This document shows, piece after piece, positions 1,782-41,129 of a stretch of DNA of 64,000 nucleotides. The DNA is from a virus (lineage: Duplodnaviria; Heunggongvirae; Uroviricota; Caudoviricetes). The number at the start of each line of letters is the position of its first letter. Position 1 is the first letter of the stretch. The position numbers and the translations under genes were made by a program. The notes under the pieces were generated by a model. That model worked only from the letters and a program-made list of their open reading frames with translations. It searched no databases and had not been told where the DNA came from. The stretch is from the IMG/VR virus record IMGVR_UViG_2877948078_000003. One strand, 5' to 3'.

Positions 1782-2244
1782 TCATGCCGCAGTGTCTGTG
1801 CTGTTCACTTCCACCGCAATGCTGTCAATCAGCAGCGTATACGTCGCCGATTTTGATATATCGGTCAGTTGCAGTTTGTCCACCGCCCCCGATGCCGGTG
1901 ACTTCACCAGTGTGAACGCCGCTCCCCGTTTCTCATCCAGTACTGGTGTCACCTGAATGCTGTTGTTTCCGGCAAACTCAAAAGCCAGCGTGTGCCATCC
2001 GTTATCAAAGACCCCGAATGTATCCAGCTTCGCATTCGGCTTCCTGTGATGCATCGCGTTCAGGTTCGTCGTATCCGTCTGCAGGAAGAAAGACATCAGC
2101 ATATCGTTACCTTCTCCTGACAGCGTCACCCCCTCCGGCAGGGACGACAACTGCCAGTAAATGCCCAGGGCAAACTGATTCGGCACCAGTGAACCCGGCA
2201 ACTTAAACCGTACGCTCACACGTCCGCCCTTCTTCAGTAACTCC
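1782..2244 (-). pseudogene. nanS-p: 3' (C-terminal) fragment of a nanS-p-type sialate O-acetylesterase gene, cut off by the Mu-like insertion
   Basis: Translation ELLKKGGRVSVRFKLPGSL...IDSIAVEV aligns to the C-terminal ~155 aa of the intact 680-aa paralogue at 36834-38876; homology stops exactly at the Mu-like left end. Confidence 0.8.
2240..2244. repeat. Left copy of the 5-bp target-site duplication ACTCC
   Basis: ACTCC directly outside the prophage left terminus; identical pentamer at 41125-41129; removing the element and one copy restores the nanS-p frame (GAELLKKGG). Confidence 0.6.
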
Positions 2245-2420
2245 TGTAACCAGGTGAATCATTTGATACCAACGAGGGTTTTAGTGAAAGGAGGTGAAAT
2301 CACCTGTAAGATACTGAAATAAAACAGGTGATGTCTGGATGAGCGCTTAAAGTCTATTTGATACCGATTGTGCAATAATTAATCGTTTATTCTAAAATCG
2401 GCAAAACTTTTGATACTGCG
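2245..2420 (+). repeat. Mu-like left end (attL) with repeated candidate transposase-binding motifs
   Basis: Begins 5'-TG; TTTGATACC at 2262-2270 and 2357-2365, TTTGATACT at 2408-2416; the reverse complement GGTATCAAA / AGTATCAAA recurs three times at the right end. Confidence 0.55.
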
Positions 2421-2494
2421 ATCTCAACTTTTTAAAGCGTTTAAAACTTCATTAAATCTATATGGCAACTAACATACGGGCCAGCCTCGCCAAA

Positions 2495-3025
2495 CTAACC
2501 CGCTTTAGATTCTACCGGATTTGATTGCCTACTTGTCTCGGTTTTTTCCAAAATCTCTCTGACGCAATCGTCTGGCATATCTACAATCATCAACGCAGCC
2601 AGGCGCTTCCTGCCTTCTAGTTGTAATAAATCCTGGTTTTCTTTATCCAGCAGTGTCAGAACCGTCTCTACACCTTTGCGAGCAAGGAGATTGGTTAACT
2701 GTTCTCGTTCGTCTTTCGTAAGGAATGAAAGCATCTGTGTAAGTTGATCTCCCTTATCACCAGAACGACCAAAATTACCACAAATACCAACATCGTTTGG
2801 TGATTCACCCTTGCCCTCTTTAAGCCACTCAAGACTAACTCCTTCACTTTCAGAAATTCGTATAAGGATACTTTCTCTGGGGGCTGGTTGTGTTTGTCCT
2901 CCCTTGAAATAGCTGTTTAATGTGTTGATATTGATTCCCCACGCTCTGGCAGCTGCACTTCTTGAAGGGTAGCGCTTTGTAAGCATTCCAATACGTTCAA
3001 TAACAGGTTCTTTTCCCTGCGACAT
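2495..3025 (-). CDS. c: Mu-type repressor (c / Repc-like)
   Basis: Leftward gene between attL and ner; N-terminal HTH-like region MSQGKEPVIERIGMLTKRYPSRSAAARAWGININTLNSYF; likely start at the internal Met (ORF extends to 3100). Confidence 0.7.
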   Translation of the reverse strand: MSQGKEPVIERIGMLTKRYPSRSAAARAWGININTLNSYFKGGQTQPAPRESILIRISESEGVSLEWLKEGKGESPNDVGICGNFGRSGDKGDQLTQMLSFLTKDEREQLTNLLARKGVETVLTLLDKENQDLLQLEGRKRLAALMIVDMPDDCVREILEKTETSRQSNPVESKAG

Positions 3026-3215
3026 AAAGATACCTCTTGGTGCTTTTCTAAGGAAAGGTTTCTTTCTATTTATCCAATTGAAAAATAAGGATAAAAGCAA
3101 AAAATAGCCAAAACACCAAAAATACCTTGATTTGGTATTTTTAGTGATGCATTATTTACCCGTGCAGATATCCGCACGAATATCCGCGCGGGTAACTTTT
3201 TAGAATAGAGGAAGT
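3026..3215. promoter_or_regulatory. Divergent repressor/early promoter and operator region (Mu O1-O3, Pe, Pc equivalent)
   Basis: AT-rich intergenic region between divergent repressor and ner genes; assigned by position only. Confidence 0.4.
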
Positions 3216-3464
3216 ATGAGTAGAAGAGAAGTTTCAGATCACGATTGGCCGCCTGAAATCATCAAGGCGCGCTTACACATGGCTGGCTTATCACTGCGCT
3301 CTTTATCTTTAAAGGCTGGTTACAGCAGGGATTCGCTGAAAAGCGTATTACGTACTCCTTGCCGACCGTATCAGCAAATAATTGCTGATGCTCTTGGGGT
3401 ATCGCCTGAAGAAATCTGGCCCAGTAGATACCAGGTTAAGAGCTATATGAGAAAGGCGTCATGA
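3216..3464 (+). CDS. ner: Ner-like DNA-binding protein (negative regulator of early transcription)
   Basis: 82 aa; motif GLSLRSLSLKAGYSRDSLKSVL...IIADALGVSPEEIWPSRY resembles Mu Ner; directly upstream of the transposase. Confidence 0.8.
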   Translation: MSRREVSDHDWPPEIIKARLHMAGLSLRSLSLKAGYSRDSLKSVLRTPCRPYQQIIADALGVSPEEIWPSRYQVKSYMRKAS

Positions 3465-3465
3465 T

Positions 3466-5556
3466 ATGTATGTCATTGCAAAAGAACTGATTGGCGCGCC
3501 CGGAATGCCTGCTACAACAAAAGGTATTCGCCAGGCATTACAACGTTACGTACAAGGGAAAAGCTGTTGTTCCCGTCGTCGCTCAGGCTCTAAAGCAACT
3601 GAATACAGCATCGACTGTTTACCTGAAGTGACGCAGCAGGCATTACGTGAACGTTATGCCCTGCAACTGATGACGCAAAAAGCCGATGAATCACCGGCTC
3701 CGGTGGTGACAAAGGCCAGACGCTCATCTGACGTGGTTGATGCGGTGGAGGCATATCGCGGATCACCACAACTGATGGTCGAACGCCTCAATGCCCTGAC
3801 TGAAAACCAGCGCCAGGTGGCTGATGCACGAATCGCGATCGTCAGCGAAGTGATGAAAGTCGCGCAACAACCCGGTTTCAGCTGCGCGAAGGCTATCCGG
3901 TTTATCGTTGACAACCTGGCACGTTCACAGCTGGACGAGCGCATTGTGGCAATGGTTGAGACGGCGAACGCCAAAAAGGGAAACAGCCGTGCGTTGAGTG
4001 AAATCACGCTGAAGCGATGGATTGCGGCCTTTAACAAGGCACAGAACGCCGCTGAACGCCTGCTTTTACTGGCACCGGGTAAACGCCAGGAAATAAAAGC
4101 CGAAGATATTAACTGGCTGCCCGAATTTCTGGCGCAGTATCGCCAGTCAAACGGCCGACCAATGACCGAGGCTTACGAGGATTTTGTTGCTGAATGGCAG
4201 CACCGGCACGCTGATGAGCCTTATATGCTCGATATCATGCCCTCTTATGACACCATTCGCCGCGCAATGAAGAAACTGCCGGAAGTGGTGAAACAAAAAG
4301 GCCGGGTGACAGGCAGTGAATACCGTCAGCTTGAGGGATTCACGCGCCGCGACTGGTCCAGAATGCCGGTGAATTATGTCTGGATTGGTGACGGTCACGG
4401 CATGAAGATGAAATGCAGGCACCCGGTTCACGGGCGGCCATTTGCACCGGAAGTGACCTTTGTTATCGACGGTGGCACGCGCTTTGTGGTGGGCTGGAGC
4501 CTTGACCTGGCTGAAAATGTTTTCGCCGTAGCCGGTGCCATACAGCACGGTATTCGCCATCACGGCAAACCGTTTCTGTATTACTCGGATAACGGTTCGG
4601 GGGAAACCGCCGACATCCTGGATAAGGAGGTTGTGGGGATCCTGCCGCGCCTGGGGATTAATCACCCGACAGGGATTGCCGGTAATCCGCAGGGGCGAGG
4701 CATTATCGAACGGCTTAACCGCACATTACCGATGCGCATAGCCCGTAAATACCGCACCTATTTCGGGAAAGGTGCAGATCGCGAGACGTTACGCAAAACC
4801 AACCGCGATTTACGCTCGGCATTCACTGCCCTGCAACAGGACAAACGGCTGAACGCCCGGCAGCAGTCAGCGATGCGTGATTTACCGTCCTGGCCTGAAC
4901 TGATTGATGCCATCCGTGATGGTGTCGAGTGGTACAACAACCGGCCGCACAGCGGATTGCCGGTGAAACCGAACGGTAAGCATTACAGCCCGGCGGAATA
5001 CAGGAAAAAACGCCTGGCAGAAGAGGACACGGAAATTGAATGGCTGTCCGATGTTGAGCTGCGGGATATGTTCCGGCCGATGGTGGAACGCCCGGTAAGA
5101 CGCTGTGAAATACGCTGGCTGAATAATATTTACTACGCGCCCGAGCTGCGTGATGAGCATGGCCGTAAGGTGCTTATCAGCTATGACATTCATGATGCCG
5201 AACGAATTACCGTGCGTCGCCTGGATGGCAGCGTGATTTGCGAGGCGGTATGGGACGGCAATAAACGCGAAGCCTTCCCGGTCAGCGCGGAATACTACAA
5301 ACAGCAGCAACGCCTTAAAGGCATGCGTAAACGCGCAGAGGAAAAAATCCGTGATGCCGAGGATGAGGTGGTCAACGTGCTGGAGCACAAGCCGCAAGAG
5401 CCCTGGCTGGAAAACATCTATCGCCCGGTAGGTAATACGGTGGCCGTTCAGCAACCTGCCGTTGATGATGAGCCTGATGAAGAATACGAGCGTAATTTCC
5501 AGCGGGGATTGCAGTTGCTCGAAGCGAAATTAAAAGAAAATGACCCGCTGGCCTGA
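3466..5556 (+). CDS. A: Mu-type DDE transposase A
   Basis: 696 aa (MuA is ~663 aa); internal DDE-like region (VWIGDGHG ... YYSDNGSGE ... IERLNRTL); position after ner. Confidence 0.9.
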   Translation: MYVIAKELIGAPGMPATTKGIRQALQRYVQGKSCCSRRRSGSKATEYSIDCLPEVTQQALRERYALQLMTQKADESPAPVVTKARRSSDVVDAVEAYRGSPQLMVERLNALTENQRQVADARIAIVSEVMKVAQQPGFSCAKAIRFIVDNLARSQLDERIVAMVETANAKKGNSRALSEITLKRWIAAFNKAQNAAERLLLLAPGKRQEIKAEDINWLPEFLAQYRQSNGRPMTEAYEDFVAEWQHRHADEPYMLDIMPSYDTIRRAMKKLPEVVKQKGRVTGSEYRQLEGFTRRDWSRMPVNYVWIGDGHGMKMKCRHPVHGRPFAPEVTFVIDGGTRFVVGWSLDLAENVFAVAGAIQHGIRHHGKPFLYYSDNGSGETADILDKEVVGILPRLGINHPTGIAGNPQGRGIIERLNRTLPMRIARKYRTYFGKGADRETLRKTNRDLRSAFTALQQDKRLNARQQSAMRDLPSWPELIDAIRDGVEWYNNRPHSGLPVKPNGKHYSPAEYRKKRLAEEDTEIEWLSDVELRDMFRPMVERPVRRCEIRWLNNIYYAPELRDEHGRKVLISYDIHDAERITVRRLDGSVICEAVWDGNKREAFPVSAEYYKQQQRLKGMRKRAEEKIRDAEDEVVNVLEHKPQEPWLENIYRPVGNTVAVQQPAVDDEPDEEYERNFQRGLQLLEAKLKENDPLA

Positions 5557-5627: not shown

Positions 5628-6560
5628 ATGACTGATATTAACGATGTAATCAAGACCATTGATGAACTTATTGATGGCGGCGTACTGACGCAGTATGCCA
5701 TCGCCAGAGAGGCGGGAATTTCCGACGGCACATTATCGGCTTTCCGTAAGGGAAAATATAAAGGCGATAACGCTGCTGTGGCTGCTTCCCTGCGCTCCTG
5801 GTATGAGAACTGGAATAAACAAAGCGCACTGCCGGAACCGCCGCAGTTTGTGGAAACGCAGACAGTCCAGGAGCTGCGCGCACTGTTTCAGGCGGTTCGT
5901 CTGATGGGCTGTATTAACGTTATTGTGGGCGTACCGGGTGTGGGTAAAACGGCCACCGCCCGTAATTACTGCCAGGAGCAACCAAACACCTGGATGATCA
6001 CCCTGTCTCCCGCGCATTCCAGCGTCACGGAGTGTCTGCTGGAGCTGGCCGATGCGCTGGGGATTGATTACACCCGCGCGAACAAAGGGGCATTATCCCG
6101 CGCCATCCGCCGTCGCCTGATGGGAACGCGCGGACTGGTGATTGTGGATGAGGCGGATCATCTTGGTATTGACGGTCTGGAGCAACTCCGGGCAATTCAG
6201 GACGCCACGGGGATCGGGATGGTGCTTATTGGTAACCCGCGCGGACTGTTTAAAGGTGGACGCCGCGCCTTTGATGATTTATCGCGCCTGTTCAGCCGTC
6301 TTGCCCGTACAAAACAACTTCGCAGGGCTAAAAAGGCGGATGTGCTGGCTATTGCCAGGGCATGGGGTATCAGTGGTGAGGCCGAGCTGGCTGTCATGCA
6401 GGCTATTGCTGAAAAACCGGGAGCATTACGTGTTCTGACACATACGCTTAACCAGGCGTGGCTCACAGCCAGCGGTGAAGGCGCGGCGCTGACAGAAAAA
6501 CATATTAATGCGGCCTTTAAAGAGGTTTACACCAACCCTGAATTACTCTCGCAGGTGTGA
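5628..6560 (+). CDS. B: Mu B-type ATPase (transposition target-DNA activator)
   Basis: 310 aa; N-terminal HTH; Walker A GVPGVGKT and Walker B VIVDEADHL; follows A. Confidence 0.85.
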   Translation: MTDINDVIKTIDELIDGGVLTQYAIAREAGISDGTLSAFRKGKYKGDNAAVAASLRSWYENWNKQSALPEPPQFVETQTVQELRALFQAVRLMGCINVIVGVPGVGKTATARNYCQEQPNTWMITLSPAHSSVTECLLELADALGIDYTRANKGALSRAIRRRLMGTRGLVIVDEADHLGIDGLEQLRAIQDATGIGMVLIGNPRGLFKGGRRAFDDLSRLFSRLARTKQLRRAKKADVLAIARAWGISGEAELAVMQAIAEKPGALRVLTHTLNQAWLTASGEGAALTEKHINAAFKEVYTNPELLSQV

Positions 6561-6784: not shown

Positions 6785-6796
6785 ACGAGAGGTTAT

Positions 6797-12493: not shown

Positions 12494-12919
12494 ATGGCAG
12501 AAACTCAGATGAGCATGTTTGGTGGTGACAGTGAGCAACTGCACGCCCTTATCGACCGCCTTGATGACATCCCTGATGATGTTCTCAAAAAGAACTGGCC
12601 GCGGACCCTGTCAGAACTGGTTGAAGTCACCGGCGCAGAACTTCAGCGTCAGGGGATTGAGCCGGTACTGGCCGGTAAACTGGCACGCAAGGTGGCTGCG
12701 GCTCAGGCAGCCTATATGGGCGGACGGGGTTATTACCTGCCGGTCGGGGAATCTCTCTTTGCCGAGCTGCGAAACAATGAGATATTTTCGCGCTGGGACC
12801 GGGGCGAGAAGATTGAATCCCTTCGCCGCCATTACCGGATGTCAGAAACCCAGATTTATACCGTCATACGTGAACAGCGCCGTCTGCATCTGGCAAGAAC
12901 GCAACCGCCACTTTTCTGA
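12494..12919 (+). CDS. mor: Mor/C-family transcriptional activator (middle/late operon regulator)
   Basis: 141 aa; C-terminal HTH (RRHYRMSETQIYTVIREQRR); position between gemA and the lysis genes. Confidence 0.75.
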   Translation: MAETQMSMFGGDSEQLHALIDRLDDIPDDVLKKNWPRTLSELVEVTGAELQRQGIEPVLAGKLARKVAAAQAAYMGGRGYYLPVGESLFAELRNNEIFSRWDRGEKIESLRRHYRMSETQIYTVIREQRRLHLARTQPPLF

Positions 12920-14972: not shown

Positions 14973-15554
14973 ATGGACAAGCCGACGCGTGGTCGTGTAC
15001 GCAAGGTGGATTTGCTCCCCGACAGTATCCGTAAGCCGCTGCTGGAAATGCTGCGTGAAAAACGTCTGACGCAGGTCCAGATCCGCGAGGAAATCAACCG
15101 TCTGATCCGTGAGGCGGGCCTGCCGGAAGAGCAGCAGCTTTCACCGGCGGCCATCAGCCGGGAAGCCTCCCGTAATGAGCTGATTGCCCGTAACCTGCGT
15201 GATTTACGCGAGCAGACAAAAGCCATGATGGCCGAACTGGGGGACAAGCCGACCGGTGAAACCACTGCACTGATTCTGGAGATGTCCCGCGCCCTGATGT
15301 ACCGCCGTCTGCGTGCCGCCACCGAATCCCTGAACAGCGACAGCGACGTGGATATGCGTCTTATTAAGGACATCCTCCTGTCAGCACAGCGTGCGGAAAG
15401 TGCCGCCGAGCGCAGCATTAAGCGTGAAAAAGAAATCCGGGCTGCATTTGCTGAAGAGATGGCAAACGCCGTCACCGACGAGCTGCGCGGCGTGGACGGG
15501 ATGAGTGAACAGCTTGAGTCCCGTATTAAGGGGATTCTGTTGGGTAAAGCCTGA
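14973..15554 (+). CDS. Mu gp27-like protein (putative small terminase / DNA-binding)
   Basis: 193 aa, immediately upstream of the large terminase; N-terminal HTH-like segment. Confidence 0.6.
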   Translation: MDKPTRGRVRKVDLLPDSIRKPLLEMLREKRLTQVQIREEINRLIREAGLPEEQQLSPAAISREASRNELIARNLRDLREQTKAMMAELGDKPTGETTALILEMSRALMYRRLRAATESLNSDSDVDMRLIKDILLSAQRAESAAERSIKREKEIRAAFAEEMANAVTDELRGVDGMSEQLESRIKGILLGKA

Positions 15555-26052: not shown

Positions 26053-26060
26053 GGTAAGGC

Positions 26061-26426: not shown

Positions 26427-26440
26427 TCAGGAAAAATAAA

Positions 26441-27041: not shown

Positions 27042-27044
27042 TCC

Positions 27045-29099: not shown

Positions 29100-30444
29100 C
29101 ACGCCGGGGCGTGGCTCCTTTCGTGGTGTACCGTTTCTGGTTTATCAGGAACAACGGGAACGGGGCGGACGTAACATTGTACGCCGTGAATATCCTCTGC
29201 GGGAAAGCGGCGGCGCGGATGATTTGGGGCCAAAACTCCCGGAGTTTACATTCACGGCTCTTGTGATCGGCGATGATCTTCAGACGCAGCGAAGCCGCCT
29301 GCGGGATGCGCTGCGGGCACCCGGTGCCGGTGAACTGATGCACCCGGATTACGGCACCTTAAACGTGCTGATAAACAGCTTTGAAAGCCGTTATAACGCC
29401 AGCGAACAGGGAACGGTTGAGTTCACAATCAACGTGATCCCCGCCTGTGATGATACCGCACCGGCGGTGGCTGAAGACACGGCTGCCGTTCTGGAGCAGA
29501 AAAGCGGTTCAGCAATGAATCAGTTGTTTAACACGCTTTCAGACGGCTGGACAGTGATTTCAGACGGCCTGCATGATGTGCAGGCCATGACCGACACCAT
29601 CAGCGATAAAATTGATGCGCTGGAGAATGCCGTTTCGGGAATGGGGATTGTGCAGGATATCAGTGCCTTTACGGCCAGTTTCACTGCCCTGAAAGGGAAT
29701 GCTGCCGCCCTGATTAATTCGCCCCGTCGCATGGCTGAATCTCTGGCCGGAATGTTTGCGGTGCTGACGGGACTGCCCGGCGATCCTTCCCTGTCACTGA
29801 CCGGGAAGGCCGCAACGCCGTCCGGCAGCCTGACCACAAACCGTGACAGCATGACAGAGCAGGCAATGCCGCAACTGTACCGCACACTTTCTTCCCTGCG
29901 TTATACCCTCAGCGGGCAGGATGATCCGCAGATCCTGATTGGTCTGACGCCTGCGGCACAGAAAAATATCTGTCTTCTGCGGACAGTCATGCAGAGCGCA
30001 ACCCTGGTGTCACAGGCGCAGACGGTAGGAAAACTGCTGGATCAGGTCGTCCGGCAGAGTGCGACGCACGTTCAGGATACTGACCGGGAGGGCGGACTGG
30101 CCTGGCTGGAAAGTTCTGCCGATGTGCAGCGGCTCAACCGGGATTTGAGTGATGCCCTGGAACAACAGGTGCTGGATTTGTCCGCACAGGGCCATACCGG
30201 AACCGCCCTTGCATTACGTGATGCCAGGCTTGCGCTGACAGAGGATTTAACAACGCGTAGCGTGCATCTTCCCGGCGCTTCTCAGGTCATGGTGCGAACC
30301 ACCGAACCGGCACTGGTCACGCTGTACCGTGCCACCGGCAACAGCCGTCGCTGGCAGTATTTTGTCCGCAGGAACAACATCCCTGATCCGGTTTTTGTTC
30401 CTGGTGGTCGCAGTGTGGAGGTGATCAGTGAGCAGCATGATTGA
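29086..30444 (+). CDS. Mu N-like DNA circularisation / tail protein (gp43)
   Basis: 452 aa; order after tape measure. Confidence 0.7.
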   Translation: MASTDTPGRGSFRGVPFLVYQEQRERGGRNIVRREYPLRESGGADDLGPKLPEFTFTALVIGDDLQTQRSRLRDALRAPGAGELMHPDYGTLNVLINSFESRYNASEQGTVEFTINVIPACDDTAPAVAEDTAAVLEQKSGSAMNQLFNTLSDGWTVISDGLHDVQAMTDTISDKIDALENAVSGMGIVQDISAFTASFTALKGNAAALINSPRRMAESLAGMFAVLTGLPGDPSLSLTGKAATPSGSLTTNRDSMTEQAMPQLYRTLSSLRYTLSGQDDPQILIGLTPAAQKNICLLRTVMQSATLVSQAQTVGKLLDQVVRQSATHVQDTDREGGLAWLESSADVQRLNRDLSDALEQQVLDLSAQGHTGTALALRDARLALTEDLTTRSVHLPGASQVMVRTTEPALVTLYRATGNSRRWQYFVRRNNIPDPVFVPGGRSVEVISEQHD

Positions 30445-31555
30445 GCTGTATATTGGTGGCAGTATTTTTTCCGGCTGGCTGACAGTAAGCGTCCGTCGTT
30501 CTCTGGAGCATCTGGCCGGGTCGTTTGAACTGGGGCTGATGCTGCCCGGTGAGCGCATCCCCTCAGCCCTGCGGACCGGTCAGTCCCTGACGCTCAGAAT
30601 TAACGGGCAGACGGTCATCAGTGGCTGGCTGGATCAGGTCAGTCAGCGGATCAGTGCAACCCGTCATCAGATCAGCATCAGCGGTCGGGATAAAACCGGC
30701 GACCTGGTGGACTGTGCCGCCATCCATCCCGGCAGTCAGTGGCGAAACCGGACGCTGGCACAGATTGCCGCAGATTTATGTGCGCCCTTCGGAATAGCCG
30801 TGCGCTGGCAGGTTAACGACGACACGGCTGCACGCCCCTTCAGCTCTTTTACCCTGGAAAACTCAGAAACCGTGGCGGATGCGCTGACCCGTGCGGCCCG
30901 GCATCGTGGGGTGCTGGTGACCAGTAATGCTGACGGCGATCTGGTGTTCACCCAGGCAGGAAATCAGCAGACGGACAGACTGGTGCTGGGGGAAAACCTG
31001 CTTGATGCCGATTACAACACGGACTGGCGCGGACGATACAGCGAATACCGTGTCCGGGGGCATGGACGCGGTGGTGGCAAACGGGGAGACAGCGAATCCG
31101 CCGCCCGGCTGGCGGCCCCTGTGGGTGTCATCAGTGATGATCAGATCGGTCGCTACCGGCCGAAAATCATCCTCGCCGATCAGCAGACAGACACCACCGG
31201 TGCACGGCAGCGCGCCCTGCGGGAGATGCGCCGTGCGGTTGCCCGTTCAGAGCGGTTTTCCGCCACCGTGCGTGGCTGGTTCCGGGATGATGGCCGGTTA
31301 TGGGATGTCAATCTGCTGACCGGTGTTTCGGCCCTGCGTTTCGGTATCGAACAGACTGAGCTGCTGGTCTGCCAGGTGGAGTTTTTACTGGATGAACAGA
31401 ACGGGGAAGTCACCCGGCTGGTCCTGGCACCGCGTGACGGCTTTATCGTTCCGGCAGAGCCGGACAGCAAAGGCCGTGGCGGTGGTTACGGTGACGATGT
31501 TGATGCCTTTATTCGCCAGCAGATGAAAAAACAGGGGATCAGCTTTGATGAATGA
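30428..31555 (+). CDS. Mu P-like tail/baseplate hub protein (gp44)
   Basis: 375 aa (Mu P ~379 aa); order. Confidence 0.75.
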   Translation: MSSMIELYIGGSIFSGWLTVSVRRSLEHLAGSFELGLMLPGERIPSALRTGQSLTLRINGQTVISGWLDQVSQRISATRHQISISGRDKTGDLVDCAAIHPGSQWRNRTLAQIAADLCAPFGIAVRWQVNDDTAARPFSSFTLENSETVADALTRAARHRGVLVTSNADGDLVFTQAGNQQTDRLVLGENLLDADYNTDWRGRYSEYRVRGHGRGGGKRGDSESAARLAAPVGVISDDQIGRYRPKIILADQQTDTTGARQRALREMRRAVARSERFSATVRGWFRDDGRLWDVNLLTGVSALRFGIEQTELLVCQVEFLLDEQNGEVTRLVLAPRDGFIVPAEPDSKGRGGGYGDDVDAFIRQQMKKQGISFDE

Positions 31556-32159
31556 TGAAGTGTTCAGCCGCCTGATTGCCCCGGTAACGCGCGGCATTCG
31601 CCTGTTGTTTGGCCGGGGCGTTCTGACCGGCACACATGACGAACTGAAAATGCAGAATGTGCAGCTCACCGGCATGGACGGCGAAACCTTTGATGATGTG
31701 GAGCGTCCCCAGCAGTACGGGCAGATCAGCGTTCCCCTGCCGGGTGCGGAAACCTTTTTTGCCTGTCTGGGCGGGCAGCGTGATCAGACCGTGGTGCTTG
31801 TGGTGGAAGACCGCCGCAGTCGCCCGACCGGACTCACTGCCGGAGATACCGGCGTGTATCACCATGAGGGACACCGTATACGTCTTACCCGCGACGGGAG
31901 GATCATCGTGACCTGTAAGACGCTGGAGATTTACGCCGATGAAGGTGTTCAGGTGGATACACCGGAAGCCACTTTTACGGGCAATGTCACGGTGGATAAA
32001 AACCTGCATATCAAAGGTAATCTGACCATTGACGGCACAGGAAAATCACAGGGTACGTTCACGATGTCCGAGGCTGTTATTGCCGGAATCACCTATTCCG
32101 GCCATGTACATCATGATAACGGTGAAGGCAGTAAGACAGGAGCGCCGGAGAATGGCTGA
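31545..32159 (+). CDS. Baseplate assembly protein V / spike (Mu gp45-like)
   Basis: 204 aa; order and size. Confidence 0.7.
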   Translation: MMNDEVFSRLIAPVTRGIRLLFGRGVLTGTHDELKMQNVQLTGMDGETFDDVERPQQYGQISVPLPGAETFFACLGGQRDQTVVLVVEDRRSRPTGLTAGDTGVYHHEGHRIRLTRDGRIIVTCKTLEIYADEGVQVDTPEATFTGNVTVDKNLHIKGNLTIDGTGKSQGTFTMSEAVIAGITYSGHVHHDNGEGSKTGAPENG

Positions 32160-32589
32160 TATTGCAATTGTGTGGGATAAGGGATGCGGTTCGCTGCAAC
32201 TGAACGGTGCAGACCTGCTGACAGATGACAGCCTGATGACAGCGGTTCTGATTTCACTGTTCACTGACCGCCGGGCACTGACGTCGGATGAAATCCCTGA
32301 TGGCACTCGTGACCGCCGGGGATGGTGGGGAGACAGCTTTCGCCAGCGTCCCATTGGCTCCCGTCTGTGGCTTCTCAGCCGGGAAAAAACGCTGGCCTCT
32401 GTGATAAGCCGTGCCCGTGCCTACGCGGATGAGGCGCTGGGCTGGCTCAGTCAGGATGGCGTGGCGTCATCCGTGGTCTGTCATGCAGAACGTGTGGGGC
32501 ACGCGCGGCTGGCGCTTTCGGTGCGCATAACCCTGCCTGATGGTTCGGTAAGACCCATGATTTTTTATGCTGATCTTAAGGGGGAGTAA
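32152..32589 (+). CDS. Baseplate protein (Mu gp46 / W-like)
   Basis: 145 aa from ATG at 32152 (longer upstream ORF disregarded); order and size match Mu gp46. Confidence 0.7.
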   Translation: MADIAIVWDKGCGSLQLNGADLLTDDSLMTAVLISLFTDRRALTSDEIPDGTRDRRGWWGDSFRQRPIGSRLWLLSREKTLASVISRARAYADEALGWLSQDGVASSVVCHAERVGHARLALSVRITLPDGSVRPMIFYADLKGE

Positions 32590-33671
32590 TGCCTTATCAG
32601 CCTTTACCGCTGGCACAGTTAATCACGCAGACACAGCAGGATATCAGCCAGCGTCTTCCCGGTTCGCAGCCGGGCGTGAATGAAACCACCCTGAATGCCA
32701 TTGCGTATGCTCAGGCAGGATTGTCTGCACAGGAGCATGAACATCTGGCCTGGATTGCACGTCAGATCATCCCGACAGAAGCCGATGAAGCCGAGTTGCT
32801 GAAGCACTGCGCTTTCTGGGGTGTCATGCGTAAACCCGCCTCACGGGGTGACGGGCCGGTTCAGCTGATGCTGACCACGGATGCGGGGATCACGGAAGGT
32901 GTGCTTCTCCAGCGCAGTGACGGCGTGGTTTACCGCATCACCTCCTCACTGACCGGTAAAGCCGGTACGCTGAATGTCAGTGTGGAGGCCGAAAGTGCCG
33001 GTCGTGCGGGAAATGCCCCGGCAGGGACGAAACTGACGTTTGTCACTCCGCAGGCGGGGATCAACCAGACGGCCACGGTGACCGGAACAGGGATCACCGG
33101 TGGTGCGGATGTGGAAACGGTGCCGGAGCTGCTTTCCCGTCTGGTTTTCCGGGTGCAGAATCCGCCGTCCGGCGGTACACAGTACGATTTTGAACGCTGG
33201 GCGCGTGAAGTGCCGGGGGTGACGCGGGCATGGTGCCGCCCGGAATGGCCGCAGGCGGGCTGCGTGGGGGTGACGTTCGTTCAGGACAACAACCCGGACA
33301 TTTTTCCCGGTGAAGGTGATGTGAAACGTGTGGCGGATTATATCCGCAGTCATGATGATCCGGCGACCGGTCAGCCTGTCGGTCAGCCGCTGGGGCCGAC
33401 GGTGACCGTGTTTAAACTGACCAATAAGCCAGTGCCCTTCAGTATCAGGATCATCCCGAAAACACCGGAGAATCAGGCGGCAGTAAAACAGGCACTGACC
33501 GACCTGTTATACAACGAATCCCGCCCCGGCGGTCTGGTTCTGGCGTCGTCTTTCTGGCGTGCCGTGGCGGGGGTGAAAAATCTGGAGGATTTTGAAGTGC
33601 GCAGCCCGCTGACGTCGGTTCAGGCGGGAGACAGCGAGCTGCTGACAGTGGGGGAAATCACATGGCTGTAA
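32589..33671 (+). CDS. Baseplate J-like protein (Mu gp47)
   Basis: 360 aa; order and size. Confidence 0.8.
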   Translation: MPYQPLPLAQLITQTQQDISQRLPGSQPGVNETTLNAIAYAQAGLSAQEHEHLAWIARQIIPTEADEAELLKHCAFWGVMRKPASRGDGPVQLMLTTDAGITEGVLLQRSDGVVYRITSSLTGKAGTLNVSVEAESAGRAGNAPAGTKLTFVTPQAGINQTATVTGTGITGGADVETVPELLSRLVFRVQNPPSGGTQYDFERWAREVPGVTRAWCRPEWPQAGCVGVTFVQDNNPDIFPGEGDVKRVADYIRSHDDPATGQPVGQPLGPTVTVFKLTNKPVPFSIRIIPKTPENQAAVKQALTDLLYNESRPGGLVLASSFWRAVAGVKNLEDFEVRSPLTSVQAGDSELLTVGEITWL

Positions 33672-34222
33672 CCCTCACTCCGCATCAGCGCGCCCTGTTG
33701 CAGTTGCTGCCTGACGGACTGGCCTGGGACAAGCGGCCGTCATCCGTACTGGCTGCGTTATGCCTTGGCCTCAGCCATTCCACCGAACGTGTTGCATGGA
33801 CGGGAAAACAACTGCTGGCAGAACGTTTCCCTGACAGTTCCCGTCTGCTTCTGGAAGACTGGGAGCGTTATCTCGGCCTTCCCGAGTGTGATATGGCCGG
33901 AGCCACCATCACAGAACGACAGCGTTATGCCGGGAATAAATACCGGATGAAACCTTCGCTGAACCGTGAATTTTATATCCGGTTTGCGGCAGAGTTTGGT
34001 TATGAAATAGATATTCAGCCATCACCGTATTCACAGTGGGTCAGTATTGTCACGATAAACAGTGAAACCGGCTACCGGAATATGAATGTGCTGGATGATA
34101 TTCTCACCCCGCTGCGTATTTATGAGGGCGGTGCGCTGGAATGTATTCTGAACCGTTATAAGCCTGCATGGCAGACGTTTATTTACGTGTATGCAAACAG
34201 TCACGAGGAGGAGAATATTTAA
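33662..34222 (+). CDS. Tail protein (Mu gp48-like)
   Basis: 186 aa; directly upstream of the tail fibre gene. Confidence 0.65.
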
Positions 34223-35082
34223 TGTTTCATGTTGATAATAATTCCGGCGTGGCGAATATGCCTGCGCTGGCACCGGCGCAGAGTAATACCACCGCCTGGT
34301 TTACCGAAGGTGACGGACAAAAAGGTATCAGCTGGATTGGTCAGGACTGGCTGAATATTCTCCAGGCCGAACTGCTGAATATTCTGGCTGAAGCCAGTAT
34401 TCAGCCGGATAAGGCGCAGTTAAACCAGCTTACGCTGTCTATTAAAGCCATTATCGCTGCGAATGCTTTTTCCCGGAAAAATAACCTGAAAGAAATTGCT
34501 GATGCCGGTGCGGATGCTCAGCGTCTGGCCCGTGGTTATCTTGGTCTGGGGACGCTTGCCACAAAAAACAGTCTTGGTCCCGGTGACGTTAATGCCCTGG
34601 CGAAGGTTCAGAATCTCGCCGACCTGGAGAATAAGGGAACCGCCCGTAATAATCTGGATGTTTACAGCAAGAGCGAAGGTGATAACCGTTACCTGCGCAG
34701 GGAGCAGCACGGCGCAGACATTCCGAATAAAGGGGCTTTTATCGATAACCTCGGTTTACGGGATACGGTAAACAGGGCTGCGAATGCCCTGCCATCAAAC
34801 GGTACGGCTGTTGCAGCAAGCAGGCTGGCAAATACCCGCAGAATCAATGGTGTCGCCTTTGACGGGACGCAGGATATAAACATCACATCCGGCATAACTC
34901 AGAGGGATGCTGATGCCCGATATGTTCAGAACGTAATGCTGGGTGCAAGTGCGCGGACAGAGACAACAGCACCAGCTGGATGTGTTGTAACATTTGTGGA
35001 TGGTGGCAGTAAAATGGAGTTTATAATGTATAAGCCTGTTCAAATATATATCGGGGGAGCATGGAGAACAATCTCTGGCTGA
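34222..35082 (+). CDS. S: Tail fibre protein S (constant part plus variable tip in the current orientation)
   Basis: 287 aa from ATG 34222; the gix crossover site lies inside the gene at 34739-34764; C-terminal [17 protein letters not shown] tip. Confidence 0.7.
34739..34764. promoter_or_regulatory. gix-L recombination site (Gin/Hin-type 12-2-12 crossover site)
   Basis: TTATCGATAACC-TC-GGTTTACGGGAT resembles the Mu gix / Hin hix consensus; inverted copy at 36094-36119. Confidence 0.65.
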
Positions 35083-35168
35083 TTTTTATTTATTCTGCGA
35101 AGCATCAGTAATACCCGCAGACAAAAAAATATATCATCGGCGGGGTTTATATAAAATACAGGTGAAAA

Positions 35169-35690
35169 ATGGAACTAATCAACGTTAAGCGATATAACCC
35201 GGAACACAAACCCTATGGTGAGAATGTTCAGTATTTCCAGAGTGAGGACGGAAGGGATTTTTATGAATCTATCCCGCTTTTCACAAAGAAATACAAACTC
35301 TGTATTTCGCCTGTAACGGGTATTATCTGCTCTGTTGCTGAAGATGTCTCTGCTTTATATCCGGCAGGTTTTACTGTTGTTGAAGTGGACGAACTGCCGG
35401 AAGGTGTGAATATTGACGGTAACTGGCAGTTTTCTGATGGCCTGATATCAAAGGTGCCGGTAAACTGGAAGACGGTTGCTGAAAATCGCCGCTCATCGCT
35501 GCTCCAGGAGGCCAACGGAACCGTGGATGACTGGAAAACAGAATTAAAACTGGACATGATTAGCGATGAAAATAAATTAAAGCTGACGCGCTGGATGGCG
35601 TATATCCGACAGCTTAAAGAAATGCACTTTAATGATATTGCCAGTGAGGGGCATTACCAGGCGATTCCCTGGCCGGAAAAACCGGAATAA
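35169..35690 (+). CDS. U: Tail fibre assembly protein (U / Tfa-like)
   Basis: 173 aa immediately after S; Tfa-like N-terminus. Confidence 0.7.
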   Translation: MELINVKRYNPEHKPYGENVQYFQSEDGRDFYESIPLFTKKYKLCISPVTGIICSVAEDVSALYPAGFTVVEVDELPEGVNIDGNWQFSDGLISKVPVNWKTVAENRRSSLLQEANGTVDDWKTELKLDMISDENKLKLTRWMAYIRQLKEMHFNDIASEGHYQAIPWPEKPE

Positions 35691-35724
35691 TTCAGAGGGT
35701 GCATTCAGCACCCTTTTCTGTGGT

Positions 35725-36105
35725 TTACACTGAACTCACCGTTCTCCAGGCATTATTAATATAAATCTGAACCGGGCGATAATAGACCCCACCGATATTA
35801 TCCGCAGACCGGGAGCCGGTATCCTGTACATGAATACCGGAAAGCATACAACCTGCTGGTGTTTTATAATCCCAGGTGACTTCATTACCCGCAGGAGAGT
35901 GGCGGCTCTGAGCACCAAGTTGCACATTACGAACATATCTGCCGTCTGCTGTAGCCTGGGTCATACCGGATGTAATAGTGATGTCTTTTGTGCCATCGAA
36001 CGCAACACCATTAATTTTACGTGCCGCAGACAGCTTGTTTGCCGCTACGGCTGTACCATTCGATGGCAGGGCATTTGCAGCCCTGTTTACCGTTTCCCGT
36101 AAACC
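35725..36105 (-). CDS. Alternative tail-fibre C-terminal segment S' (expressed only after inversion; no own start codon)
   Basis: Minus-strand frame open from gix-R down to the stop at 35725; after inversion it fuses in frame to the S constant part; ends YRPVQIYINNAWRTVSSV, paralogous to the S tip. Confidence 0.55.
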   Translation of the reverse strand, partial: GLRETVNRAANALPSNGTAVAANKLSAARKINGVAFDGTKDITITSGMTQATADGRYVRNVQLGAQSRHSPAGNEVTWDYKTPAGCMLSGIHVQDTGSRSADNIGGVYYRPVQIYINNAWRTVSSV

Positions 36106-36119
36106 GAGGTTTCAGGGAT
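36094..36119. promoter_or_regulatory. gix-R recombination site
   Basis: TTCCCGTAAACC-GA-GGTTTCAGGGAT, inverted relative to gix-L. Confidence 0.65.
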
Positions 36120-36173: not shown

Positions 36174-36734
36174 ATGCTGATTGGCTATATACGCGTATCA
36201 ACAAATGACCAGAACACAGGTTTACAAAGAAATGCGCTGGAATGTGCAGGATGTGAGCAGATTTTTGAAGATAAAATGAGCGGAAACACAACGCAGCGAC
36301 CGGGACTGAAGCGGGCACTGAAGAAACTAAAACCCGGTGACACACTGATGGTCTGGAAACTGGACAGGCTGGGGCGCAGTATGCGCCACCTTGTTGCGCT
36401 GACAGATGAATTACAGCAACAGGGGATAAATTTTCGTAGTCTTACTGACAACATTGATACGTCAACCCCCATGGGGCGCTTCTTTTTTCACATAATGGGT
36501 GCGCTGGCAGAAATGGAGCGTGAATTAATTGTCGAACGGACACGGGCTGGTCTTGCAGCTGCCCGTGAAAGGGGACGAACCGGCGGCAGACCCCGCCGTC
36601 TCACGCAGGAACAATACGAGCAGGTTGGGCGTTTACTGGCCGGGGGTGTCAGTCGAAGACAGGTGGCACTTATTTTTGATATCGGCCTTTCAACCCTTTA
36701 TCGTTATTATCCTGCGAGCGTTTCGGAAAAATAA
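36174..36734 (+). CDS. gin: Serine DNA invertase (Gin/Hin/Pin family)
   Basis: 186 aa; N-terminal MLIGYIRVSTNDQ catalytic-serine motif; C-terminal HTH; adjacent to gix-R. Confidence 0.9.
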   Translation: MLIGYIRVSTNDQNTGLQRNALECAGCEQIFEDKMSGNTTQRPGLKRALKKLKPGDTLMVWKLDRLGRSMRHLVALTDELQQQGINFRSLTDNIDTSTPMGRFFFHIMGALAEMERELIVERTRAGLAAARERGRTGGRPRRLTQEQYEQVGRLLAGGVSRRQVALIFDIGLSTLYRYYPASVSEK

Positions 36735-36833: not shown

Positions 36834-38876
36834 ATGACGTCCAAATGGGTTCAACTATCATCAATGCCCGGAAACTTTACCGTTAAAGTTTCCGGTGGTA
36901 CAGCGGCATTTCTTGAGGCTCCCTTTCCTCCGGCTGAAGCGAAAGGAGGAATGACATTTGCTGACTGTCTCATCAGTTTTAATACACGGGATTGCCTGTG
37001 GGTAAGACCAGTATCCGGTGATCCGAGTGTGGAAATTACCGGAGCGGGTATTGGTGCGGTCATTCCGTTAAGTGCTGATGTTGCCGGTACTGCTGAACCG
37101 TCAGACTGGGATAATGCTGAAACACATACCCGTCCGTCAGGAAATGAAACGGCTTCCAGCTCCCCTTCCTGGTATTACGTGGTGGTTCTTGCTGGTCAGT
37201 CAAACGGTATGGCTTACGGTGAAGGTCTGCCACTGCCGGAGACATATGACCGCCCCGAACCGCGTATTATGCAGTTAGCCCGTCGCAGTACAGTCACGCC
37301 GGGAGGTAAAGCCTGTCAGTATAACGACATCATTCTGGCCGACCACTGTCTGCATGATGTGCAGGATATGAGTGGAAAAAATCACCCGAAAGCGGATGTG
37401 GCTAAAGGGCAATATGGCACCGTGAGTCAGGGGCTTCACATTGCCAAAAAACTGCTGCCGTTTATTCCGGCAGATGCGGGGATTCTGCTGGTTCCCTGCT
37501 GTCGTGGCGGTTCTGCATTCACGGCGGGTGCTGACGGCACGTACAGTGACAGCACGGGTGCTTCAGAGGACTCAGCCCGCTGGGGTGTGGATAAGCCGCT
37601 GTATAAGGACTTAATCAGCCGGACAAAAGCGGCACTGGCGAAGAACCCGAAAAACCGCCTGCTTGCTGTGGTGTGGATGCAGGGCGAGTTTGATATTGAT
37701 GCGAAGCCGACGGAGCATTCTGCGCTGTTTCTGGCGATGGTGGAAAAATTCCGCACAGACCTGGCTGAAAAAGCGGAGCAGTGTATTGGTGGCCGGACTG
37801 AAACTGTGCCGTGGATTTGTGGCGATACCACGTATTTCTGGAAAAAGAAAAATGAACCGGCATATCAGGCAATCTATGGCGGCTACAAAAACAAAACAGA
37901 TAAAAACATTCATTTCGTCCCATTAATGACAGATGAAAATGGCGCGAATGTACCCACCAACAATCCGACAGAAGACCCGGATATTGAATCCATTGGTTAT
38001 TACGGCTCAACGTGGCGTAACAGTGCTGCCACCTGGACATCTGCGGACCGGGCCAGCCATTTCAGTGCCTGGGCGCGCCGGGGAATTATTTCCGACCGTC
38101 TGGCCACGGCTGTTCTGACTCACGCAGGGCGAACCACAGTAAAAGCCGATGTTCCATCTTCTGAAACTGATGCGCCAACGCCGTCACCTTCAGAAGCTGA
38201 AACAGTAACCACAACAACACTGCTGTCTTACCGTGCCAGTGAGTCTGAAGGGAAGCTGACCGAACAGGGCTGGAGTGCAGGTGGAGGTAAAGCGGAAATT
38301 GTTGCCGATGAAGGTGCAACAGGTGGTACCGCGATGAAGCTGAGCAAGGAGACAGGAGTGGGGTCATGGTATCTGGAGCATGATGCCGGCACTGGCGCTG
38401 AACTGCTGAAAAATGGCGGTTTAATCAGCTGCCGCTTTAAGGCATCCGGTGAACTGGTAGCAAATCAGTATGTCATTGCTCTTTACTGGCCGGTTTCCTC
38501 TCTGCCGCAGGGTGTCACCCTGACAGGGGATGCAGGGAATAATCTGCTGGCAGCGTTTTACATCCAGACAGATGCAAAAGACCTGAATGTGATGTACCAC
38601 AATGCGAAGGTGGCGACAAACAACCTGAAACTGGGAAGCTTTGGCGCATTTGATAACGAATGGCATACGCTGGCCTTCCGCTTTGCCGGGAATAACAGCC
38701 TTCAGGTGACGCCGGTTATTGATGGTCAGGATGGCACACCGTTCACGCTGACGCAGTCACCGGTCAGTGCCTTTGCGACGGATAAACTGCATGTGACAGA
38801 CATTACCAAAAATGCGACTTACCCCGTGCTGATTGACAGCATTGTGGTGGAAGTGAAAAAAGCGGTAACAGAATAA
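36834..38876 (+). CDS. nanS-p: NanS-p-type sialate O-acetylesterase (SGNH/DUF303 esterase with C-terminal lectin-like domain), cargo inside the Mu-like prophage
   Basis: 680 aa; central block VVVLAGQSNGMAYGEG ... VVWMQGEFD typical of the NanS family; ~75-85% identical over most of its length to the split host-prophage copy but with a different N-terminal ~130 aa. Confidence 0.8.
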   Translation: MTSKWVQLSSMPGNFTVKVSGGTAAFLEAPFPPAEAKGGMTFADCLISFNTRDCLWVRPVSGDPSVEITGAGIGAVIPLSADVAGTAEPSDWDNAETHTRPSGNETASSSPSWYYVVVLAGQSNGMAYGEGLPLPETYDRPEPRIMQLARRSTVTPGGKACQYNDIILADHCLHDVQDMSGKNHPKADVAKGQYGTVSQGLHIAKKLLPFIPADAGILLVPCCRGGSAFTAGADGTYSDSTGASEDSARWGVDKPLYKDLISRTKAALAKNPKNRLLAVVWMQGEFDIDAKPTEHSALFLAMVEKFRTDLAEKAEQCIGGRTETVPWICGDTTYFWKKKNEPAYQAIYGGYKNKTDKNIHFVPLMTDENGANVPTNNPTEDPDIESIGYYGSTWRNSAATWTSADRASHFSAWARRGIISDRLATAVLTHAGRTTVKADVPSSETDAPTPSPSEAETVTTTTLLSYRASESEGKLTEQGWSAGGGKAEIVADEGATGGTAMKLSKETGVGSWYLEHDAGTGAELLKNGGLISCRFKASGELVANQYVIALYWPVSSLPQGVTLTGDAGNNLLAAFYIQTDAKDLNVMYHNAKVATNNLKLGSFGAFDNEWHTLAFRFAGNNSLQVTPVIDGQDGTPFTLTQSPVSAFATDKLHVTDITKNATYPVLIDSIVVEVKKAVTE

Positions 38877-39989: not shown

Positions 39990-40100
39990 ATTGTTGATGA
40001 CTTTTCAATCTATTTGTTGTATCAATTAAACAAATCGAATCGATCGTTTTTGTCGATCGATTGCATGAGAAAGGCATCAACAACAAAGCAGGAGGTTATG
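39990..40100 (+). promoter_or_regulatory. Putative com-mom promoter region with clustered GATC (Dam) sites
   Basis: AT-rich region with GATC-containing repeats (AATCGATCG, GTCGATCGATT) just upstream of com, as in Mu where Dam methylation and C control Pmom. Confidence 0.4.
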
Positions 40101-40105
40101 CGGCC

Positions 40106-40306
40106 ATGTATCGAAACATACGGTGCCGACACTGCAATAAGCTACTGGCACGGGCCAGTTTCAGTTATCTGGAAGTAAAATGTCCGCGCTGTAAAACCCT
40201 CAATCAAATCACATCTCCGAGCGCCACAGAGCACCCCACATACACAAGGAAATCCTGTCGTGGGGAACAGAAAGCAAGTCACATCCCGAATCATCAGCAC
40301 GCCTGA
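40106..40306 (+). CDS. com: Com-like zinc-finger translational activator of mom
   Basis: [31 protein letters not shown] (CxxC ... CxxC) resembles Mu Com; RBS AGGAGG upstream; overlaps the mom start. Confidence 0.7.
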
Positions 40307-40997
40307 ACTTATTCGCTATAACGACAATATCGTTGGTTATGGCTCCCGTGAGTTGCGGGTTGAGACAATAAGTTGCTGGCTGGCCAGACTGGTCATCGTC
40401 AATAAACATTACAGCCACCGTTTCGTAAATAACTCCTACCTTCATCTGGGCATATTTTCAGAACGGGAACTTGTTGGCGTAATGCAATGGGGTTACGCCC
40501 TTAACCCAAACAGTGGTGCACACGTCGTAACGGGTACGCAGAACCGAGAATATATGGAGCTTAACCGGCTATGGCTGCATGACTGTATGCCGAGAAACTC
40601 CGAATCAAGGGCAATCAGTTACGCGCTCAAGCTAATCAGACAGCTTTATCCGCAGGTACAGTGGGTTCAGTCGTTTGCAGATGAGCGTTGTGGCTGTCTT
40701 GGTGTCGTGTATCAGGCAAGCAATTTTGATTATGTAGGCAGCCATGAATCAACATTCTATGAACTTGATGGCGAGTGGTATCACGAGATTTGCAGGAATG
40801 CCATTAAACGAGGCGGACAACGAGGTGAACATCTGAGGGCTAATATCGACAGAGCCAGTGTTCATAAGTTCCGACAGTTTCGTTACATCCGGTTTCTGAA
40901 CAAGAGGGCCAGAAAACGCCTCAACACAAAGCTATTCAAAGTCCAGCCTTACCCAAAACCACAAACTGTTAAAACCGGTTTGAAAGAGATTGGGTGA
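40260..40997 (+). CDS. mom: Mom-like DNA modification protein (anti-restriction adenine modification)
   Basis: 245 aa starting at GTG inside the com 3' end as in Mu; last gene before the right end. Confidence 0.7.
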
Positions 40998-41039
40998 GTG
41001 CTTAAAAACTCATTCTAAAACGCAAAGGAAAAGCGCCGA

Positions 41040-41124
41040 TTTAGTATCAAATAAGTTGCGTATCGGCGTTTTTCAGCGGTATCAAATGAAATGCAAATCG
41101 GTATCAAAAAAATCGCCGCGCTAT
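41040..41124 (+). repeat. Mu-like right end (attR) with inverted candidate transposase-binding motifs
   Basis: AGTATCAAA at 41043-41051, GGTATCAAA at 41078-41086 and 41100-41108: reverse complements of the left-end motifs; terminus reads ...CGCGCTAT rather than the canonical CA. Confidence 0.55.
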
Positions 41125-41129
41125 ACTCC
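41125..41129. repeat. Right copy of the 5-bp target-site duplication ACTCC
   Basis: Identical to 2240-2244. Confidence 0.6.

Follow-up and report, generated by a model that had tools for sequence, protein, structure and literature searches.

How did the nanS-p gene of a lambdoid prophage come to lie in two parts separated by 38.9 kb of DNA, and what is the DNA that separates them? In the window (the whole 64,000-nucleotide stretch of viral DNA analysed here), the minus-strand gene is split by transposition: a complete Mu-like prophage of the Sp18 type (2245-41125, plus strand, 38,881 bp, 5'-TGTAACC...GCGCTATA-3') is nested within the lambdoid prophage. The 5' part of nanS-p (41126-42631, minus strand, codons 1-502, with DUF1737 and SASA domains) starts at 42631 and reads ...HDAAGQGAE as far as the junction; the 3' part (1782-2244, minus strand, codons 503-654, with the DUF6645 domain) picks up in frame at 2243 with ELLKKGGRVSVRFKL... 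Removal of the insert together with one copy of the flanking repeat restores an open reading frame of 654 aa. The nested Mu-like element, the split gene and the restored reading frame had been described in a first-pass annotation of the same DNA, which called for an alignment of the flanks to E. coli genomes lacking the insertion; such an alignment finds an uninterrupted nanS-p locus in which the two flanks are contiguous, so that the nested arrangement stands as proposed. At least 10 complete genomes contain the empty site, matched at 100% identity over 359 bp, with the gene annotated there as a SASA family carbohydrate esterase, and the restored 25.1-kb window aligns to strain SI-NP020, which carries an uninterrupted prophage at the ompW site, in a single HSP of 25,115 bp at 99.92% identity. 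In its present state the truncated gene runs on for 36 extra codons inside the element to a stop at 41015; no record of this 538-aa fusion of nanS-p and element sequence was found anywhere, and none of the complete E. coli genomes searched (a collection of 5,426) spans either junction of the present insertion, the evidence for which comes from one assembly.

An element of 38,880 bp had been placed between the junctions, ending in ...GCGCTAT and bordered by a clean 5-bp target duplication; the element itself is confirmed, whereas its size, its right terminus and the length of the duplication had to be revised. ACTCC does occur at both junctions (2240-2244 and 41125-41129), and phage Mu makes target duplications of 5 bp, so that the present window alone would allow an element spanning 2245-41124 with a Mu-standard duplication. 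In nine of nine independent insertions, Sakai Sp18 among them, the base after ...GCGCTAT is nevertheless an A and the next four nucleotides repeat the last four of the left flank; agreement with that flank extends to the fifth base in two of the nine (the chance rate), and in the other seven this base differs. The A at 41125 is thus the last base of the element, which ends in ...CTATA, and the duplication is the 4-bp CTCC (left copy 2241-2244, right copy 41126-41129, the latter read from the junction sequence and the insertion survey); the fifth matching base in the present window is a coincidence. All right-end matches listed include this A, reaching position 41125 or farther, and the depositors of two related GenBank records (LC727895 and LC727881) also annotated the duplication as 4 bp. 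The arrangement of terminal repeats points the same way. The motif TTTGATACY occurs eight times in the window, where 0.9 occurrences would be expected; six of the eight copies are no more than 175 bp away from an end of the element: three on the plus strand at the left end (2262-2270, 2357-2365 and 2409-2417) and three, found by the same motif search in inverted orientation on the minus strand, at the right end (41043-41051, 41078-41086 and 41100-41108). By analogy with the L1-L3 sites of Mu, these repeats are putative transposase-binding sites. With a right end at 41125, and with no other, the distance from the terminus to the first TTTGATACC repeat is 17 nt on both sides of the element; on all these grounds, a 5-bp ACTCC duplication is very improbable. 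A variant, in which the stagger is 5 bp and a retained flap nucleotide appears as a pseudo-constant A, was also ruled out: it predicts the A in part of the insertions, and the A is seen in all. No target consensus was apparent by eye among the nine insertion sites. In the Sakai genome, the annotated Sp18 feature (5040971-5079729) is offset from the true ends by 1 bp on the left and 5 bp on the right.

The same termini bear on whether the locus arose by transposition at all. The lambdoid nanS-p and a paralogue carried by the element are inverted with respect to each other and only ~2.2 kb apart (41126-42631 on the minus strand and 36834-38876 on the plus strand), and the present junction occurs in no other genome searched; a rearrangement or a misassembly through homology between the two genes could be imagined on that basis. 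However, the two proteins are only 65% identical in amino acids, the breakpoints fall outside the paralogue, and both coincide exactly with termini that are used, with a target duplication, at hundreds of other loci; recombination or misassembly via the paralogue is therefore rejected as extremely improbable. Of the 5,426 complete E. coli genomes, at least 231 match the left end from query position 1 onwards, and they do so at many different loci; at unrelated loci, the left end is found in 231-568 genomes and the right end in 997. The flanking sequences (tauA, comEC, vasI, sorM, dcuC, ypdB, a phage portal gene and others) are those of an element that moves by transposition and not by site-specific integration. 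We hold it to be very probable that a Mu-like phage of the Sp18 family integrated by DDE transposition into nanS-p of the ompW lambdoid. The entry point of this phage is codon 502/503, and the phage itself codes for an A protein of the MuA type and for a MuB-type AAA+ protein, B.

The gene content of the element agrees with this origin. The Mu gene order proposed in the first-pass annotation is borne out by Pfam domains and by the PGAP annotation of a copy in E2865, from which gene order and names were transferred. At the left end, a putative c-type repressor gene (2495-3025, minus strand), assigned by position only, is divergent from the early operon; it has no family match in Pfam, and corresponds to a "hypothetical protein" at L005 551-1081. 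It is followed on the plus strand by the gene for transposase A (3466-5556, 696 aa; Pfam Mu-transpos_C 1.5e-17 and HTH_Tnp_Mu_1 1.7e-6), a MuA-type DDE transposase whose DDE core resembles those of retroviral integrases, and by the adjoining gene for a MuB-like AAA+ transposition and target-capture protein (5628-6560, plus strand, 310 aa; Phage-MuB_C 9.4e-25 and AAA_22 4.1e-18). The nearest phage relatives of transposase A are SuMu (43%) and D3112-like phages (~30%); Mu is absent from the ten most frequent organism names among its tblastn matches, and phmmer found no MuA structure. Downstream, and likewise on the plus strand, lie a gene for a Mor-family late activator (12494-12919, named after the homologous CDS of the E2865 copy) and a head module (15554-22964) comprising a large-terminase-like gene (15554-17218, PGAP), a Mu-type portal (17209-18807, Portal_Mu 3.3e-93), the major head protein gpT (22017-22964, Mu-like_gpT 6.7e-119) and, by their PGAP names, a minor head protein and a protease. 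A contractile-tail module (24571-35690, plus strand; ORFs and PGAP names) encodes the sheath, tube, tape measure, baseplate, tail fibre and fibre assembly proteins. An invertible tail-fibre segment (34747-36111), with inverted repeats of 200 nt (34747-34946 and 35912-36111) at its borders, precedes a Gin-like serine invertase (36174-36734, plus strand; Pfam Resolvase 4.2e-51 and HTH_7). The plus strand then carries the NanS-p-like esterase paralogue (36834-38876, 680 aa, with SASA and DUF6645 but without DUF1737) and, with com before it, the DNA modification gene mom (40260-40997; Pfam Mom 4.7e-77, Com and Mom both being annotated in the E2865 copy). Portal gp29, gpT, Gin and Mom are thus recognised by Pfam (Portal_Mu, Mu-like_gpT, Resolvase, Mom), and Gam, Mor and Com are named by PGAP in the E2865 copy. 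Judged by the lengths of its open reading frames, the element looks intact from the repressor-position gene through com/mom, lysis genes included.

The recipient is a lambda-like prophage at E. coli ompW, which in the SI-NP020 reference occupies ~52 kb between the ompW fragments. As annotated by PGAP in the SI-NP020 prophage, which is 99.9% identical to and collinear with the restored window, it has int-xis, a repressor/cro-type switch, replication genes, Q, nanS-p, the holin-lysozyme-Rz cassette and a lambda-type set of head and tail genes, from terminase through tail fibre, that lie outside the window. The same annotation locates the antiterminator gene Q at 49373-50038 (minus strand); the lysis cassette spans 225-1412 (minus strand), with holin at 1197-1412, lysozyme at 659-1192 and an Rz-like gene at 225-662, and the first-pass positions of the Q/pR' region (~49.1-50.0 kb) and of the lysis genes (0.2-1.4 kb) hold, with Q itself at ~49.4-50.0 kb. 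Insertion would enlarge the composite prophage from ~52 kb to ~91 kb across the lambdoid. As ~91 kb would exceed what a lambda-type head can package, the lambdoid has probably lost its mobility as a unit; this consequence of size is a firmer one than any uncoupling of its late genes from Q.

To reach the genes for holin, lysozyme and Rz and those for morphogenesis, Q-dependent transcription would have to traverse 38.9 kb of DNA, running antisense to the Mu-like genes, and lambdoid late-gene expression would be at least delayed. The first-pass annotation suggested that the late operon is probably uncoupled from Q. A strong version of this view, in which a polar effect of the insert fully uncouples the lysis and morphogenesis genes from Q/pR' so that no late expression follows induction, is conceivable, and we lean moderately against it. 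The foreign DNA between Q (49.4-50.0 kb) and holin (1.4 kb), the antisense direction of transcription relative to nearly all Mu-like genes, and a hairpin located where the repressor-position gene (minus strand) ends speak for such a block. However, Q-modified RNA polymerase ignores terminators across tens of kilobases, and resists both intrinsic and Rho-dependent terminators over the whole ~25-kb lambda late operon, so that read-through of 39 kb of antisense DNA may still occur; matches to a terminator consensus, moreover, do not count as evidence of function. Downstream of Q, a scan returned one weak promoter-like match (49365-49337), and a terminator scan of that region found none. Published Stx2 titres of strains with Mu-interrupted Stx phages do not discriminate between coupling and uncoupling, because these strains also carry a second Stx phage.

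The insertion falls on a domain boundary of the NanS-p protein, severing the esterase part from DUF6645. In Pfam, the restored protein has DUF1737 at residues 3-50, SASA at 80-277 and DUF6645 at 504-617, a domain order which, together with the position of the gene between Q and the lysis genes, identifies it as a NanS-p on sequence grounds. The truncated protein would keep DUF1737 and SASA; as the DUF6645 jelly-roll domain that it lacks is reported to contribute to activity (bioRxiv 10.64898/2026.04.10.717836, citing Franke et al. 2020), NanS-p is probably inactive or impaired. An intact paralogue with the motif GAELLKNGG had been noted at the outset; it is present and lies inside the element, as the esterase gene at 36834-38876. 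Upstream of nanS-p, Rfam reports four adjacent copies of STnc100, and Tandem Repeats Finder detected no array.

Does the nesting reflect more than chance? It might be proposed that phages of the Sp18 family land, or are kept, in resident lambdoids more often than expected and cripple these competitors by splitting Q off from the genes for lysis and morphogenesis and making the genome oversized, which would amount to a conflict between prophages, and that the 4-bp stagger and TA terminus denote a chemistry distinct from that of Mu. We regard this combined proposal as unlikely. By a rough count, 7 of 24 named insertion flanks are phage or IS sequences (P = 0.08 against a mobile-element content of 16%), and in closed genomes of CC119, 6 of 10 Mu-like phages sit in mobile elements (PMC10132054); both counts would follow just as well if purifying selection removed insertions that hit useful genes of the chromosome. 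The event is of an ordinary and already known type, its site being one not seen in the genomes searched: the presence of Sp18-like phages inside prophages, including Stx phages, has been published (PMC10132054), and nested Mu-like phages are already annotated in GenBank (LC727895 and LC727881). The nested insertion as such brings little new biology. It offers an example of a transposable phage able to inactivate, along with a resident lambdoid, one copy of a gene for a mucus-sugar esterase, and adds to the prophage-driven diversity of STEC-like E. coli; in prophage calling and annotation, composite regions of at least 90 kb in which a Mu-like phage lies within a lambdoid are to be reckoned with. 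The TA terminus and the duplication of 4 bp amount to a minor curiosity. In practice, the Sp18 family is to be delimited by TG...TA and a 4-bp duplication and not by the 5-bp/CA rule of Mu. Literature searches for a 4-bp duplication in Sp18, SuMu or Yersinia Mu-like phages, and for papers describing the 4-bp stagger and TA terminus as departures from Mu, returned nothing.

In comparison with known systems, the restored 654-aa protein shares DUF1737, SASA and DUF6645 with other NanS-p sialate O-acetylesterases of Stx and lambdoid phages, and its gene shares both their location, with the Q/tRNA region on one side and the holin gene on the other, and 100% DNA identity across the junction with nanS-p alleles of other genomes; unlike NanS-p of other lambdoids, it is here split between the esterase part and DUF6645. 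The element is a member of the Sp18 family: it has termini identical to those of Sakai Sp18 of E. coli O157:H7 (TGTAACCAGGTG... and ...CGCCGCGCTATA), with the same 4-bp duplication, and the gene order of Sp18-like STEC phages, including the NanS-p-like/DUF1378/DUF826 cargo and com-mom. Sakai Sp18 itself, which is reported to be intact, spontaneously induced and packaged but not inducible by MMC (PMC2669165), differs in its site, sorM in place of nanS-p of the ompW lambdoid. The Sp18-type copy in E2865 is ~97% identical in the early and head regions, whereas its tail module is only ~78-82% identical and its invertible tail-fibre segment has the opposite orientation. Closest in circumstance are Mu_JNE122137 and Mu_JNE082796 (LC727895 and LC727881), which are ~97% identical to the element and also nested in lambdoid prophages; their hosts are Stx1a and Stx2c phages at prfC (PMC10132054), whereas the present host is a non-Stx lambdoid at ompW with nanS-p as the target. 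With bacteriophage Mu, the element has in common a repressor-position gene, A and B, a semi-essential region with Gam, Mor, lysis genes, a Mu-type portal/gpT head, a contractile tail, a Gin-type invertible fibre segment, com/mom, multiple putative transposase-site repeats at both ends and near-random insertion sites. By contrast, its transposase is distant from that of Mu, it carries a NanS-p-like esterase, and in place of the CA right terminus and 5-bp duplication of Mu it has TG on the left and TA on the right in every copy examined, with a duplication of 4 bp in all nine insertions.

The minus-strand nanS-p ORF of the lambdoid prophage starts at position 42631 and is translated up to ...HDAAGQGAE, where it meets a Mu-like transposable prophage of the Sp18 family; its remainder, ELLKKGGRVSVRFKL..., continues in frame on the minus strand from 2243 downwards. 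At the left junction ...CAGTAACTCC abuts TGTAACCAGGTG..., and at the right junction ...CGCCGCGCTATACTCC abuts GCACC.... Deletion of the insert with one repeat copy yields a 654-aa ORF, and a 359-bp empty-site query is matched at 100% identity in at least ten complete E. coli genomes, with SASA family carbohydrate esterase as the annotation of every match. Uninterrupted alleles of the gene thus exist, in agreement with the first-pass annotation, which had described nanS-p as split and had named non-contiguous flanks in an uninterrupted locus as a refuting result. The window restored in this way (25,115 bp) aligns as a single HSP, at 99.92% identity, to the ompW-adjacent prophage of strain SI-NP020; the flanks are contiguous in this uninterrupted locus, and the objection of non-contiguous flanks therefore fails. 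On these alignments, the insertion is real and its core reading, a Mu-like prophage splitting a lambdoid nanS-p, is right. An insertion at this site was absent from the complete E. coli genomes searched, as was the 538-aa fusion ORF from the protein-position index.

Between ompW fragments, the uninterrupted SI-NP020 prophage measures about 52 kb, with no annotated stx gene. Its PGAP order runs from int, xis, an exonuclease, a repressor/cro-type switch, replication genes, hok/sok, DUF968, RusA and Q to a methyltransferase, two tRNAs, nanS-p, holin, lysozyme and Rz, followed by two genes annotated as “sce7726 family protein” and “beta family protein” and by the full lambda-type gene set, terminase through tail fibre. 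In the window, a sok antitoxin RNA (Rfam, 115.8 bits; 52399-52573, minus strand) and the Hok/Gef gene annotated in the reference copy make up what is, by annotation, a hok/sok module in the early-to-Q region. The two tRNA genes between Q and nanS-p (46624-46785, minus strand) are Arg(TCG) and Met(CAT) by ARAGORN, the second being tRNA-Ile by PGAP in the reference copy, i.e., its CAT anticodon is read as Ile. Five full-length matches to STnc100 (Rfam RF02076; 119-172 bits) lie on the minus strand at 42859-43838 and 45598-45810; four are back to back, within the lambdoid late transcription unit, in an ORF-poor stretch of about 1.9 kb directly upstream of nanS-p.

The exact ends of the element were placed by comparing nine independent insertions: the window, the Stx phages LC727895 and LC727881, E2865, RM8385, RM9245, 90-3040, 10153 and Sakai Sp18, the prototype of the family. 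The right terminus had been read as ...GCGCTAT and the target repeat as a clean 5-bp ACTCC. In all nine insertions, an A directly follows ...GCGCTAT, and the four bases after it repeat the last four of the left flank. The fifth left-flank base (A, T, T, C, C, C, G, A, T) equals the constant A in only two, the chance expectation, and the 5-bp reading ACTCC comes down to a one-base coincidence. All listed right-end matches in other genomes run through this A, the depositors of LC727895 and LC727881 annotated 4-bp duplications, and the distance from the terminal TTTGATACC repeat to the terminus is 17 nt at both ends only when 41125 is taken as the right end. Because of these four lines of evidence, the element is placed at 2245-41125 (38,881 bp; 5'-TG...TA-3') with a CTCC duplication, one base beyond the former right terminus. 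Sakai Sp18 as annotated (NC_002695.2 5040971-5079729) is 1 bp short of the element at its start and runs 5 bp past the far end, an overshoot made up of the duplicated 4 bp plus one base of flank.

Gene order was read from the PGAP-annotated E2865 copy: a divergent leftmost gene, an HTH protein, a Mu-type transposase (A) and an AAA ATPase (B); Gam, gp16 and Mor; lysozyme and spanin; terminase, DUF935 portal, minor head protein, protease and gpT; sheath, tube, tape measure and baseplate; a tail fibre with invertible segment and a recombinase; a DUF6645 protein, DUF1378 and DUF826 as cargo; and Com and Mom. In the window's own ORFs, Pfam finds Mu-transpos_C and HTH_Tnp_Mu_1 in A, Phage-MuB_C and AAA in B, and Portal_Mu, Mu-like_gpT, Resolvase and Mom; each element end has three TTTGATACY repeats, in inverted orientation. 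Since the major ORFs all have the same lengths as in annotated relatives, the prophage looks intact. Identity to the E2865 copy, which is of the Sp18 type, is about 97% in the early and head regions and about 78-82% in the tail module (25210-34902), and the element is, by this comparison, a mosaic; taken overall, it is closest (98%) to relatives in bovine isolates such as OkiPb01696. The tail-fibre segment (34747-36111), bordered on both sides by 200-nt inverted repeats and adjoining a Gin-like invertase, is flipped relative to the E2865 copy, so that the switch appears active within the family. The element's own NanS-p-like esterase (36834-38876, plus strand; SASA and DUF6645, without DUF1737) is 65% identical to the interrupted gene and is followed by DUF1378 and DUF826 in the E2865 copy; cargo of this kind is usual in the late regions of lambdoids, which suggests that genes have moved between the two phage types.

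A match to the left 200 bp of the element, always starting at element base 1-3, is present in 231 of the 5,426 complete genomes, and 209 genomes have 80% or more of its right 25 kb (best at 98% identity). The query across the right junction, made up in equal parts of element right end and nanS-p flank, had matches in 997 genomes, a figure that thus includes genomes with nanS-p alone. Among the genes that flank left-end insertions in a spread sample are those for phage portal, head closure, tail tip, lysis and DUF1367. Such elements are named Sp18-like Mu-like phages in the literature; Sp18 is reported to be intact, spontaneously induced and packaged, and not MMC-inducible (PMC2669165). In CC119 STEC, six of ten such phages lie inside mobile elements, several within Stx phages (PMC10132054), so that both the element and its nesting in lambdoid prophages were already known.

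The insertion point, codon 502/503, falls exactly between the DUF1737 and SASA part of NanS-p and DUF6645 (residues 504-617; Pfam). As the C-terminal jelly-roll domain contributes to enzymatic activity, according to a preprint (bioRxiv 10.64898/2026.04.10.717836, citing Franke et al. 2020), the 538-aa fusion product, cut from DUF6645, is probably impaired. The composite prophage measures about 91 kb, similar to Mu-bearing Stx phage records (93 kb). Lambda packaging limits exclude such a length, and the composite would be too big for a lambda-type head. To reach the lysis genes, late transcription from downstream of Q would have to traverse 38.9 kb in which it runs antisense to the Mu-like genes. 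Full uncoupling of the lambdoid late operon from Q is possible but speculative, and we lean against it because Q-modified polymerase is terminator-resistant across the whole lambda late operon.

The transposase (3466-5556, plus strand) gives weak phmmer matches to retroviral integrase cores among PDB chains and none to any MuA chain; its closest relatives by tblastn against phage genomes are SuMu (43%) and D3112-like Pseudomonas phages (about 30%). By these searches, it is only a distant relative of MuA. The 4-bp duplication and TA right end, the sole and mildly unusual point of the case, are already on record in GenBank features, and no discussion of them was found in the literature searched. 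In both features the family differs from phage Mu, and the distance of the transposase may be connected with a duplication of 4 rather than 5 bp.
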